Source: Escherichia phage vB_Eco_ORH_001 | Sequence record: PV656001.1 | DNA: 44,456 nucleotides | Strand: one strand, 5' to 3' | Notes under the pieces: generated by a model | What the model was told of the DNA's origin: nothing | The model's database searches: none | What the model saw: the letters and a program-made list of their open reading frames with translations, nothing else | In this document: piece after piece, positions 2,000-4,793 of the stretch | How the letters are laid out: every line of letters starts with the position of its first letter | Position numbering within the stretch: the first letter of the stretch is position 1 | Program-made: the position numbers and the translations under genes

Positions 2000-2073
2000 C
2001 AATGCTTACCTTTATTATGGTAATCGTAGCCGTGTTTTTAGGTGTTGCCGTTTTGTGCAAGGTAACGGACTGA
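1996..2073 (+). CDS. small hydrophobic peptide (25 aa), hypothetical
   Basis: Translation MTMLTFIMVIVAVFLGVAVLCKVTD; stop TGA (2071-2073) overlaps the VRR-NUC ATG (2073). Confidence 0.2.
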   Translation: MTMLTFIMVIVAVFLGVAVLCKVTD

Positions 2074-2357
2074 TGACCCCGGAAGGCAAAATACAGAAAT
2101 ACGCAAAAGAGCGATTCGAGGCCCTGGGGGGCCTCGTACGCAAATTGTCGTACGAAAATAGAGTGGGCGCGCCTGACCTCCTGGTAATTCTCCCAGGCGG
2201 CGTCGTCTGGTTCGTCGAGGTTAAGAAAGACGAAAGCACGAAGCCAGACCCGCACCAGTTACGGGAGCACGAGCGGATGCGTAAACGCGGTGCAAATGTT
2301 TTTGTCGTCGGGTCGGTCAAACAGGTTGACGACCTAATAGCTAGCTATTATAGTTAG
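2073..2357 (+). CDS. VRR-NUC domain nuclease
   Basis: GAPDLLVILPGGVVWFVEVKKDE is a PD-(D/E)xK-type signature typical of VRR-NUC. Start chosen at the ATG coupled to the upstream stop, not the ORF-track start at 1965. Confidence 0.75.
   Translation: MTPEGKIQKYAKERFEALGGLVRKLSYENRVGAPDLLVILPGGVVWFVEVKKDESTKPDPHQLREHERMRKRGANVFVVGSVKQVDDLIASYYS
2326..2354 (+). promoter_or_regulatory. strong promoter TTGACG-N17-TATAGT with perfect palindrome AATAGCTAGCTATT (2336..2349)
   Basis: Overlaps the 3' end of the VRR-NUC gene; followed by leader tacaccaacaat and the ATG at 2388. Confidence 0.6.
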
Positions 2358-2387
2358 TCCTACACCAACAATATAAGGAATTGAGAA

Positions 2388-2579
2388 ATGAAACACGAAT
2401 ATGACCGCAAGCCGGCACGTGACATCGTACCGGGCGACATGATTTTCAACGTTAAGACACGCCAGCCTGTTGCCGTTGATACAGTGTTCGTCGAGTCGAA
2501 CGGTAAACTGGTTATCGAAGATGCAACGGGTAACGTTACGGCGTTCGGGCGGAAGGAACTTGTACTGGTGGCGAAATGA
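2388..2579 (+). CDS. hypothetical protein (63 aa)
   Basis: ORF lies just downstream of promoter 2326..2354; its stop overlaps the next ATG. Confidence 0.5.
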   Translation: MKHEYDRKPARDIVPGDMIFNVKTRQPVAVDTVFVESNGKLVIEDATGNVTAFGRKELVLVAK

Positions 2580-3376
2580 ACTATTACAATGAGTGGGATA
2601 AAGGCGCAGCCGCGTGGCTGCGTGAGCTAATTAACAACAAACTAATTCCTTATGGGTATGTAGATGAACGATCAATCACAGAAGTCACCCCTTCAGATTT
2701 GGAAGGATTCACACAATGTCACTTCTTTGCCGGAATCGGAGGGTGGCCCCTTGCACTCCAGTTGGCTGGAATACCAGCAAGCACTAGACTCTGGACTGGA
2801 TCACCACCTTGCCAGCCGTTTAGCGTTGCCGGTAAGTCTCTCGGATTTGACGACGAGCGACACCTTGCCCCAGCATTTCTCAGGCTCATCAGAGAGTGCA
2901 AGCCTGAACTGCTGTTTGGAGAGCAGGTTGCGGCAGCAATTGGAAAGCACTGGCTCGATTTTGTACTCCTTAACCTGGAAGAAAAAGGCTACGCCTGCGG
3001 GTCGGCAGTATTGCCAGCGTGTAGCGTCGGTGCTCCGCATAAAAGAGACAGACTTTTCTTTGGAGCGAGCCTGTTGGCCTACCCCGAGAGCAAGAGATTA
3101 CCACACCGAGGGTGCGGGGAAGCATTCTCCGAGTTTGGCGAGGCTAGCGGAAGCGGTATCACAAAGACCATCACCTGTAACTATAAAGCCCAATGGGAAG
3201 ATTGCGACCGCATTCTATGCGCCGATAAAAAATTCCGGCCAGTTAGACCCGGATCATTCCCGCTGGCTCATGGGGTTCCCGCCAGAGTGGGACGACTGCG
3301 CGGTTACGGCAATGCCATCGTCCCGCAAGTAGCCGCTGAATTTATAAAGGCGTTCATGGGGGCGGTAAATGAGTAA
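2576..3376 (+). CDS. DNA (cytosine-5)-methyltransferase family protein
   Basis: Motif I FFAGIGGW (FxGxGG) and motif IV SPPCQPFSVAGK (PCQ catalytic Cys) are present in order; at 266 aa it is short for the family. Confidence 0.7.
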   Translation: MNYYNEWDKGAAAWLRELINNKLIPYGYVDERSITEVTPSDLEGFTQCHFFAGIGGWPLALQLAGIPASTRLWTGSPPCQPFSVAGKSLGFDDERHLAPAFLRLIRECKPELLFGEQVAAAIGKHWLDFVLLNLEEKGYACGSAVLPACSVGAPHKRDRLFFGASLLAYPESKRLPHRGCGEAFSEFGEASGSGITKTITCNYKAQWEDCDRILCADKKFRPVRPGSFPLAHGVPARVGRLRGYGNAIVPQVAAEFIKAFMGAVNE

Positions 3377-4793
3377 GTTTCAAAGGCGCGAGTACCAGAA
3401 GCTCATGACCTCGTTCATGTTGCAACACCATCGCTGCAACATATGGGCAAGCATGGGCGCCGGGAAGACTGGCAGCGTACTGTGGGCATTAAACCGACTG
3501 TTCCGCAACGGGCAACTTACGGACGACGACCGCGTGTTAATCCTGGCCCCATTGCGTGTTGCATCCGGTACGTGGCCTGCAGAACAAGAGAAATGGCGGT
3601 TTCCGTGTCTGCGTGTAGTAGACGCAACCGGTTCAGAGAAGCGCCGCATCGCGGCGCTTGAGTCCGACGCTAACGTGGTATGCATCAACTACGAGGTCAT
3701 CGAGTGGCTAATCGACTACTACGGCAAAGACGACTGGCCTTTCACCGTTATAGTTGCCGATGAGAGCACGAAACTGAAATCTTTCCGTAGCCGTTCTGGC
3801 GGCAGCAAGCGAGCGAAGGCGCTCAGCAAGGTGGCGTTCGGTAAGGTTAAGCGTTTCATCAACCTGACAGGTACACCATCTCCTAACGGTCTCAAAGACC
3901 TGTGGGGGCAGAACTGGTTTATAGACGCGGGCGAGCGCCTGGGTTCTTCATACACCGCGTTCACCGACCGCTGGTTTAATTCGGTACAGAAGGGTAAGTC
4001 CGCTATGGCACGAGAGTATCACGCCCGCCCGGGTGCGGATAATGAGATTCATCAGAAGATGAAAGACATTAGTCTCACGATTGACGCCGCCGAGTGGTTT
4101 GGTTGCGAAGCGCCGATTATCGTGCCAGTGGAAATTGACCTGCCGAAGAAGGCGCGTCAGGCGTACATCGATATGGAGGAAAAGTTATTCGCGGAACTGG
4201 AGAGCGGGGAAGTTGAAGCGGCTAACGCTGCTGCGAAGACGTCGAAGTGCCTGCAGATTGCATCCGGTGCCGTGTATGTATCCGGGCCAGACGGCGAAGC
4301 AACGAAAGACTGGGAGAAAGTGCACGATACGAAACTGGATGCGCTTGAGTCCATTGTTGAGGAGTTACAGGGCGCACCGTTACTGGTAGCCTATCAGTTT
4401 AAGCACGAACTTGAGCGTATCCTTAAGCGATTCCCACAAGCACAGGCGTTCGCCAAAGGCGCTAAGGGCAATAAGCAGATGGAAGCGTGGAACCGCGGGG
4501 AAATCGAAATCTTATGCGTGCATCCTGCGTCAGCCGGGCATGGCATATCACTACAAGACGGCGGTCATCATATGGCGTTTTTCAGTCAGGGATGGAACCT
4601 TGAGCACTATTTGCAGGTTATAGAGCGCATAGGTCCCACACGGCAGAAGCAATCGGGATACAATCGCCCCGTTTTTATCTACAAGATTATTGCTAAAGAT
4701 ACGTTGGATTCTGTTGTCGCCTCACGCACAGACGAGAAAAAACAGGTGCAGGATATCCTCCTTGAGTATATGAAACGTAGGAGTAAGAAATGA
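3369..4793 (+). CDS. SNF2/DEAD-like superfamily 2 helicase
   Basis: Walker A MGAGKTGS, DExx box IVADESTKLK, motif III-like NLTGTPSPN; start overlaps the methyltransferase stop. Confidence 0.8.
   Translation: MSKFQRREYQKLMTSFMLQHHRCNIWASMGAGKTGSVLWALNRLFRNGQLTDDDRVLILAPLRVASGTWPAEQEKWRFPCLRVVDATGSEKRRIAALESDANVVCINYEVIEWLIDYYGKDDWPFTVIVADESTKLKSFRSRSGGSKRAKALSKVAFGKVKRFINLTGTPSPNGLKDLWGQNWFIDAGERLGSSYTAFTDRWFNSVQKGKSAMAREYHARPGADNEIHQKMKDISLTIDAAEWFGCEAPIIVPVEIDLPKKARQAYIDMEEKLFAELESGEVEAANAAAKTSKCLQIASGAVYVSGPDGEATKDWEKVHDTKLDALESIVEELQGAPLLVAYQFKHELERILKRFPQAQAFAKGAKGNKQMEAWNRGEIEILCVHPASAGHGISLQDGGHHMAFFSQGWNLEHYLQVIERIGPTRQKQSGYNRPVFIYKIIAKDTLDSVVASRTDEKKQVQDILLEYMKRRSKK

Follow-up and report, generated by a model that had tools for sequence, protein, structure and literature searches.

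Escherichia phage vB_Eco_ORH_001 (sequence record PV656001.1), analyzed here over a stretch of 44,456 nucleotides that we call the window, carries at positions 2576-3376 a gene for a cytosine-5 (C5) DNA methyltransferase of 266 amino acids, and a reading of this gene in all three frames uncovers a second open reading frame (ORF) of 222 codons, at positions 2664-3332, lying wholly inside it in the +1 frame. We refer to the two frames and their predicted products as alpha and beta, respectively. The explanation that we favor, and hold to be probable, is that the locus encodes a two-subunit C5 methyltransferase like M.EcoHK31I, with alpha as one chain and the nested beta as the other. An earlier note on this DNA, made from the sequence alone, had pointed out that the methyltransferase is short and that its target recognition region may be unusual, and this suspicion was well founded: recognition-type repeats and a canonical motif IX sit in the nested ORF, which the note had overlooked and to which we attribute the shortness of the annotated protein. 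The two frames are as follows.

2576-3376, + strand, C5 methyltransferase, alpha frame (f2), 266 amino acids, matching Pfam PF00145 with 76.6 bits

2664-3332, + strand, nested +1-frame ORF, beta (f0), 222 amino acids, an open frame matching phrog_1008 and unannotated in this record

The Two Reading Frames

The alpha frame belongs to a family of at least 8000 homologues and matches PF00145 well above the cut-off of 22 bits, over residues 72-163 only, which correspond to motifs IV-VIII. Its motifs follow one another as a motif II-like element (YYNEWD), motif I (FAGIGG), motif IV (PPCQ), motif VI (GEQV), motif VIII (HKRDR), a non-conserved linker and motif X (RVGRLRGYGNAIVPQV), the GYGNAIVPQV of the last being read in the annotated frame, and two of the elements, FFAGIGG (residues 50-56) and SPPCQPFS (residues 76-83), are invariant across 52 aligned homologues. 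Comparison with M.HhaI (phmmer E 7.7e-12; hhalign probability 98.1%) likewise covers motifs I and IV-VIII only, with GEQV and HKRDR aligned to ENV and QKRER of M.HhaI, the glutamate of the former and both arginines of the latter being retained. The N-terminal YYNEWDKGA (residues 3-11) matches motif II of M.HhaI (YSNEWDKYA, E 0.003) and precedes motif I, and, relative to M.HhaI, motif I is set apart from motif IV by a gap of 35 residues; the usual order of I-II-III-IV is not followed, which suggests a local permutation of the S-adenosylmethionine (AdoMet)-binding subdomain, in the order II/III-I-IV. Over 110 family members, the N-terminal consensus (positions 2576-2725, residues 1-50) reads YYNE.Dp.AA.WLReLI..GhIa.G.VDeRSI.dV. 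Neither the Pfam search nor the comparison with M.HhaI detected an in-frame recognition domain or a motif IX in alpha, and the C-terminal third of the product, whether alpha or beta, is matched by no database profile.

The beta frame is composed of an unconstrained N-terminus, a conserved helix-hairpin module (…SLNCCLESRLRQQLESTGSILYSLTWKKKATPAGRQYCQRVAS), one WPTP repeat and a motif IX-like LDPDHSRWLMGFPPEWDDC, of which the canonical-looking motif IX, SRWLMGFPPEW, stands alongside the repeat, in the +1 frame. Over the first ~70 codons the amino-acid entropy is at the level of the third frame and AlphaFold predicts disorder, while a helix (residues 76-96) and a hairpin (residues 102-122) are predicted at pLDDT 71-80. 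The beta product has 1046 close homologues, its profile, searched in full, matches 18,227 clusters at E<=1e-3, and it has a PHROG of its own, phrog_1008 (E 1.5e-28). One example of its annotation is the record of phage K1G, in which the equivalent ORF30 (‘Mte8-like protein’) is found inside ORF31, at the same offset of +88; we conjecture that the label ‘Mte8-like’ was derived from the database name of M.EcoHK31I. A search of the literature on ‘Mte8,’ ‘WPTP’ and overlapping phage methyltransferase genes returned nothing relevant beyond such labels.

The relatives of beta are found in single-chain enzymes. In Mycobacterium phage Babsiella gp54 and Arthrobacter phage MidnightRain gp84, motifs I-VIII, LLPTP repeats, FPEWMMGWPAGW and GNGV are all encoded in one frame, and in gp54 there are many LLPTPxAxDxxG repeats, with FPEWMMGWPAGW as motif IX and GNGVCPQQA as motif X. 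The beta profile aligns to residues 459-573 of gp54, a stretch with repeats and motif IX, in a search of two sequences (domain E 2e-6), and the alpha profile aligns to motifs IV-VIII of the same protein and, weakly, to motif X. Because it is to the repeats and motif IX that the beta profile aligns, we interpret beta as a recognition region with its motif IX that has moved to the +1 frame.

Conservation of the Nested Layout

The comparison was extended to ~160 loci from IMG/VR (79 found via alpha and 80 via beta, some of them from the same contigs), along with GenBank phages of Pseudomonas, Burkholderia, Edwardsiella, Rhodobacter and Vibrio, and two of Salmonella. The same nested layout is present in essentially all of these. 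For 85 loci found via alpha, the median open fraction of the gene is ~0.9 in the +1 frame, vs. ~0.15-0.3 in the +2 frame. For 77 loci found via beta, the open alpha stretch over motif IX is at least 264 amino acids long in every case (77/77), carrying motif I in 73, motif VIII in 73 and motif X in 75. Stop codons were counted against expectations from synonymous-codon shuffles. Between motifs I and VI, 66 loci have 2 stops in the +1 frame, vs. 39.1 expected, and 136 in the +2 frame, which serves as a control, vs. 125.8 expected; in the middle cassette of the gene (~3056-3205), the alpha frame of 110 unique genes has 0 stops, vs. 282.7 expected, in a set that was pre-filtered for intact alpha, a filter that, as the 77 beta-found loci show, drops few loci. 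A sequencing error or a pseudogene as the source of the two frames was rejected, the same layout being present in ~160 loci and in phages of several host genera.

Conservation extends to the nucleotide level. A stretch of 84 nucleotides (3236-3319) is 82-87% identical in Pseudomonas, Burkholderia, Ralstonia, Edwardsiella and Erwinia phages, and overlapping parts of it match at ~76-87% in Rhodobacter and Vibrio phages. We ascribe this high identity to dual coding; an RNA element was also considered and was rejected, with a folding signal of z 0.06 and no match in Rfam.

Selection in Both Frames

Difference rates were obtained at 4-fold degenerate sites of each frame (676 pairs) and, in a frame-agnostic manner, at positions 1/2/3 of alpha codons (62 pairs). 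The five regions of the gene, all on the + strand, gave these values.

2576 to ~2875, N1, start to before motif VI: positions 1/2/3, 0.163/0.134/0.456; 4-fold sites, alpha 0.555, beta 0.149

~2876 to 3055, N2, motifs VI-VIII: positions 1/2/3, 0.204/0.123/0.267; 4-fold sites, alpha 0.274, beta 0.290

~3056 to 3205, M, middle cassette: positions 1/2/3, 0.347/0.289/0.294; 4-fold sites, alpha 0.259, beta 0.386

~3206 to 3295, C1, motif IX region: positions 1/2/3, 0.161/0.086/0.140; 4-fold sites, alpha 0.148, beta 0.229

~3296 to 3376, C2, motif X to end: positions 1/2/3, 0.197/0.217/0.387; 4-fold sites, alpha 0.542, beta 0.286

The two kinds of counts agree. The ends of the gene are coded by the alpha frame alone, regions N2 and C1 are dual-coding, and in the middle cassette beta is the better-constrained frame. 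In N2, alpha motifs VI-VIII overlap the conserved helix-hairpin module of beta, which is also covered by the entropy profile. In C1, where all three codon positions are conserved, beta motif IX (GQLDPDHSRWLMGFPPEWDD) overlaps alpha …FRPVRPGSFPLAHGVPARVGR. In M, the WPTP repeat region of beta, a putative target recognition region, is read from the same DNA as the non-conserved linker of alpha.

This arrangement bears on another reading of the locus, in which only the 266-residue protein is functional and the nested ORF is not translated, being a side effect of composition and of alpha conservation. Such a reading would sit well with the first ~70 codons of beta, devoid of amino-acid conservation as they are (entropy equal to that of the third frame), with the disorder that AlphaFold predicts for most of beta, and with the single gene called in the GenBank record and by most annotation pipelines, but it would also have to accommodate a third frame that has the same composition and is not open, and alpha synonymous sites that lose between one-half and three-quarters of their variability exactly at the conserved beta motifs. 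It does not account for the better conservation of the nested frame in the middle cassette, nor for the fact that the sole good motif IX and the xPTP repeats, in frame in the single-chain relatives, are those of the nested frame, leaving the alpha chain on its own with no recognizable recognition domain. We regard this alpha-only reading as quite unlikely.

The middle of the gene is also where close relatives part. Compared with phage Bas71 (locus L173), nucleotide identity is 43-70% over 3026-3265, which corresponds to 751-990 of L173, and 87-100% over the flanks (2576-3025 and 3266-3376), with both frames open in both cassettes, a difference that we read as the exchange of a cassette carrying the putative specificity determinant. 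Motif VIII also differs between the two phages, being HKRDR here vs. QERKR in Bas71 (canonical SPQERKR).

Possible Initiation of Translation in the Nested Frame

The first ATG of beta falls at +76, +82, +88, +106 or +118 in 89 of 110 genes, and a Shine-Dalgarno-like match precedes beta in about half of the genes. In the +106 class, AGGAG is positioned 8-9 nucleotides upstream and is formed by alpha codons (GAn GAA AGG AGn) that encode DERS (DERSI-DV). In this phage, a +1-frame TTG at 2751 has GGAGG 9 nucleotides upstream (2737-2753), within the codons of motif I (GIGGW), and is a possible alternative start of beta.

Four observations argue for the independent translation of beta: its frame is open for ~70 codons upstream of the first conserved segment, with the sequence unconstrained there; its first ATGs are clustered, and one class of these has AGGAG; the alpha frame is open through a cassette that a frameshift would skip; and no slippery heptamer is seen by eye at either junction. 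The contending mechanism, of two programmed frameshifts, +1 after motif VIII and -1 before motif X, would produce one canonical single-chain methyltransferase and would restore the order of the actinophage enzymes (motifs I-VIII, xPTP repeats, IX, X). While the junction regions are indeed highly conserved at the nucleotide level, inspection by eye, with no scan run, found neither an X XXY YYZ heptamer nor a homopolymer run at ~3285-3312, and no RNA structure (z 0.06) or Rfam match was detected. Frameshifting also leaves unexplained the ~70 stop-free beta codons upstream of the point at which they would be needed (2 vs. 39.1 expected), the selection on beta over motifs VI-VIII, the conserved beta ATG with its Shine-Dalgarno sequence, and the stop-free alpha frame through the bypassed cassette (0 vs. 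282.7). We consider it very improbable.

A Probable Two-Subunit Enzyme

As to the enzyme itself, in the two-subunit model alpha (2576-3376) would constitute the catalytic, AdoMet-binding large domain, with a motif II-like element and motifs I, IV-VIII and X, and with a sequence-unconstrained linker at the usual place of the target-recognition domain. Beta (2664-3332, of ~222 amino acids, or shorter if an internal start is used) would be translated from its own start codon. Its helix-hairpin segment, overprinted on alpha motifs VI-VIII, would act as an association module, and it would also supply the WPTP-repeat recognition region and motif IX. Alpha and beta would then assemble into one orphan cytosine-5 DNA methyltransferase, methylating phage DNA at a short site that the middle cassette, itself swappable, would determine, with protection expected only vs. 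restriction enzymes that share that site.

A number of points weigh against this model. Neither fold is supported by AlphaFold, the models being poor: beta has a pLDDT of 55.6 and is predicted to be mostly disordered, and alpha, modeled from a shallow alignment of sequences 74-97% identical, has a pLDDT of 43.7. The C-terminus of beta is not seen as motif IX by Pfam, by the Protein Data Bank (PDB) sequence search or by hhalign against M.HhaI, the beta profile having 0 hits among PDB sequences at E<=10 and an hhalign probability of 0.3% with M.HhaI, and a spliced alpha-beta-alpha chimera, searched against Pfam and PDB sequences, gave no gain over alpha alone. The beta ATG at 2664 in this phage is preceded by only a weak Shine-Dalgarno sequence, tatGGGtatgtagATG. 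In M.EcoHK31I the recognition domain is described in alpha, and in the phage the recognition-type WPTP repeats are in beta; the comparison with M.EcoHK31I is one of published description and architecture. Finally, what the analysis shows is the presence of both ORFs, how they are conserved, selection acting in each frame, the pattern of start codons, and a homology between the beta module and in-frame modules of single-chain enzymes; the translation of beta and the formation of an alpha-beta heterodimer, as well as enzyme activity and biological role, we infer.

Beta might also be translated and yet act separately, as a DNA-binding, regulatory or anti-defense protein descended from an old recognition domain and able to serve other enzymes. 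In several phages and proteins beta does run into other partners (Dam, N6-adenine methyltransferase, HNH, DUF2800/PD-(D/E)XK), but these read-throughs are not numerous and may be incidental, and in all ~160 beta-bearing loci examined beta is inside a C5 methyltransferase gene of this family, never alone. The motif IX of beta is, furthermore, precisely what alpha lacks, and M.EcoHK31I provides a precedent for a nested chain needed for activity. Separate action of beta thus appears unlikely to us, and the two-subunit enzyme remains the preferred model.

In several phages the beta frame is stop-free into the next gene, which would yield fusion proteins of beta, one example being Dam in Edwardsiella phage eiAU-183 (positions 1264-2688 of locus L006), and other examples being a DPPW-type N6-adenine methyltransferase (positions 1501-2979 of locus L097) and an HNH nuclease (positions 1568-2917 of locus L010). 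The database proteins P0242, P0344 and P0247 join beta to Dam, N6_N4_Mtase and DUF2800/PD-(D/E)XK. Among the best 150 profile matches there are no in-frame fusions of beta to the catalytic domain, the long matches being read-throughs into downstream genes. One protein of 289 amino acids from a metagenome assembly, P0017, joins alpha residues 1-~100 to beta, the junction lying between ...RHLAPAF and SGSSES.... Its interpretation as a true frame fusion was rejected: it fits a deletion of 1 nucleotide in a TTT run near ~2876, and this single sequence is probably an assembly error or a mutant.

Possible Function and Wider Meaning

Most plausibly, the orphan methyltransferase methylates phage DNA at one short site, which would shield it from restriction enzymes that share the site. 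The self-methylation against restriction that the earlier note had put forward is a reasonable putative function. The Kagunavirus isolates of the BASEL collection (Bas70-76, which do not include this phage) are reported to show high sensitivity to those restriction systems that were tested (PMC11990801), and any protection would therefore be at best narrow and site-specific. The other proposal of the earlier note, that the gene might open a more elaborate pathway of base modification, finds no support, as no genes for glycosyl-, amino- or hydroxymethyl-transfer are annotated in the genome.

A broader proposal, which we put forward only tentatively and consider doubtful at present, is that phage and prophage C5 methyltransferases with two obligate subunits form a very large family, unannotated for the most part (the beta clusters number over 18,000 and the alpha homologues at least 8,000), in which the recognition module (xPTP repeats and motif IX) would be read in the +1 frame, the association module of beta would be overprinted on alpha motifs VI-VIII, and the cassette would be exchanged to change specificity. 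If this is true, few same-strand nested gene pairs of bacterial viruses would be as widespread and as deeply conserved as this one, and it would offer a natural system in which to study two proteins evolving from one DNA stretch. Given the occasional fusions to Dam-type methyltransferases and nucleases, beta could be a portable DNA-recognition subunit.

Part of the significance is in the DNA itself: selection on two proteins from the same DNA is strong and measurable, across phages of very different hosts, and the specificity-determining cassette appears to be swappable with neither frame being broken. There are also practical consequences. This record and most of its relatives list one ‘DNA methyltransferase,’ and some list only the nested frame, as does Pseudomonas phage PMG1 (positions ~1100-2135 of locus L004), in which alpha is frameshifted in its N-terminal region, near DERSI-EDV, and the nested frame is annotated as ‘DNA methyltransferase’; the frameshift could be a sequencing error, or alpha could have decayed. 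The 266-residue protein, expressed alone for the mapping of methylated motifs as the earlier note had suggested, may be inactive, and the nested frame should be kept intact or co-expressed. Kagunaviruses serve as small synthetic-biology chassis, and silent recoding of the methyltransferase gene would not be silent, a point of relevance to phage engineering.

The Surrounding Genes

The window is 100% identical to PV656002.1 (vB_Eco_Hrm2, Kagunavirus, Guernseyvirinae), reverse-complemented and rotated. The gene for a family A DNA polymerase (2202 nucleotides in the record) is split by the window boundary, its last 1686 nucleotides being found at 107-1792, which makes the window a rotated version of the genome. 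Around the methyltransferase gene, the following features were recognized.

2073-2357, + strand, VRR-NUC-type nuclease, 94 amino acids, annotated as Holliday junction resolvase (GenBank CDS0057), PHROG 93 and phrog_5702

2326-2354, + strand, sigma-70-like match, TTGACG-17-TATAGT, 10/12, inside the 3' end of the nuclease gene

2388-2579, + strand, conserved ORF of 63 amino acids (ORF63), function unknown, phrog_4879 (E 5.6e-46, full length)

3369-4793, + strand, SNF2-family helicase, 474 amino acids, Pfam SNF2-rel_dom and PHROG 62

4790-5275, + strand, HNH-AP2 homing-type endonuclease, 161 amino acids, Pfam HNH_3 42.3 bits; AP2 23.5 bits, below cut-off

5414-5433, + strand, terminator-like hairpin, 8-bp stem with 6 GC pairs, T-rich tail

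The positions that the earlier note had given for the nuclease, the methyltransferase and the helicase are correct and agree with the GenBank annotation of PV656002.1. The nuclease matches the PHROG 93 endonucleases with E 2.9e-33 and the phrog_5702 Holliday junction resolvases with E 7.9e-20, and it scores 16.5 bits with Pfam VRR_NUC (PF08774), below the cut-off of 23.8. The helicase has 48.5 bits with SNF2-rel_dom (cut-off 24.9), 20.6 bits with Helicase_C, slightly under the cut-off of 23.5, and E 7.3e-167 with PHROG 62. The methyltransferase does follow the nuclease and precede the helicase, as the earlier note had it, but the nuclease is not adjacent: the 63-residue ORF, annotated in both PV656002 and K1G, intervenes. 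The translational coupling attributed to all of the genes is only partly right: it agrees with start/stop overlaps between ORF63 and the methyltransferase (ATGA, 2576-2579), between the methyltransferase and the helicase (8 nucleotides, 3369-3376) and between the helicase and the HNH gene (ATGA, 4790-4793), but does not extend to the nuclease gene, which ends 30 nucleotides before ORF63. As to the promoter under which the genes had been placed, the pattern is present at 2326-2354, but the region has 4 such sites, vs. 4.4 expected in shuffled sequences, and, being within the 3' end of the nuclease gene, the site could serve only genes past ~2360, which rules out the nuclease as its target.

The methyltransferase is rightly described as lacking a cognate restriction gene, insofar as the annotation goes: among the 82 annotated features of the genome there is no restriction endonuclease, only homing-type HNH endonucleases and nucleases of repair and recombination. 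The neighbors of the methyltransferase are the nuclease, the helicase and the homing-type HNH endonuclease. The cluster of nuclease, methyltransferase and helicase is ~85% identical in K1G-like phages, and hundreds of phages of Salmonella and Klebsiella keep part of it. As a module for replication/recombination the cluster is ordinary, the nuclease and the helicase being ordinary conserved genes of this kind in Guernseyvirinae, with no sign of joint work with the methyltransferase. The HNH-AP2 endonuclease is outside the methyltransferase module. Its gene seems to be absent from most of the listed relatives, whose alignments end near 4790, K1G has an ORF of 186 nucleotides at this place, and the HNH-AP2 gene is probably a mobile homing-endonuclease insertion. 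The annotation of the genome has a second HNH gene at another location. The hairpin at 5414-5433 follows the rightward replication operon, which it could end, and precedes the tailspike gene (5438-7675), which is convergent.

Comparison with Known Methyltransferases

Of the known enzymes, M.HhaI represents the canonical monomer. Alpha has in common with it the catalytic cysteine of PCQ, the glutamate of motif VI and the arginines of motif VIII, and differs from it by the spacing of motifs I and IV, by the N-terminal position of the motif II-like element, and by an in-frame recognition domain and motif IX that are undetectable in alpha. The single-chain enzymes of the actinophages have the same building blocks as the phage locus, with motifs IV-VIII, xPTPxAxDxxG repeats, motif IX of the form (F/S)xxW(L/M)MGxPxxW and motif X of the form GN(A/G)(I/V)xPQ all in common. 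However, these enzymes have all of the blocks in one frame and motifs I-II-III in the usual order, and the helix-hairpin segment of beta over alpha motifs VI-VIII has no counterpart in them. Babsiella also has an annotated +1-frame nested ORF, gp55 (positions 575-883 of locus L170, inside gp54 at 37-1884), that is rich in LPTP repeats, and the main frame of gp54 reads as low-complexity sequence where gp55 lies.

Natural C5 methyltransferases of two chains are also known. One example is M.AquI, whose two polypeptides have to associate (PMC3404938). It is split serially, with motifs I-VIII plus some of the variable region in alpha, and the remainder, along with motifs IX-X, in beta, whereas the phage beta is an insert-like module (recognition region and motif IX) nested in alpha, with motif X back in alpha. 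Another example is M.EcoHK31I, a heterodimeric enzyme of a type II restriction-modification system, in which alpha has motifs I-VIII, motif X and the predicted recognition domain, beta has motif IX, and progressive deletions of the N-terminus of beta cause it to associate less with alpha and bring activity to an end (PMC2836561, PMC3404938). M.EaeI is reported to be likewise heterodimeric. The likeness of the phage locus to M.EcoHK31I is in the beta ORF that is wholly inside the alpha gene in another frame, here as in ~160 related loci, in the distribution of motifs, I-VIII and X in alpha and IX in beta, and in a beta that is a selected coding sequence with initiation signals of its own, weak as these are at 2664. 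The plasmid names pET3a-M38 and pET3a-C23, used for M.EcoHK31I, hint at sizes within the range of the phage family. The phage enzyme differs in being an orphan, carried by a lytic phage and lacking a restriction partner, in having its recognition-type repeats in beta, and in its motif II-like element, which precedes motif I. Overall, the locus is M.EcoHK31I-like by architecture, an architecture that is conserved here on a very large scale, with selection acting in both frames.

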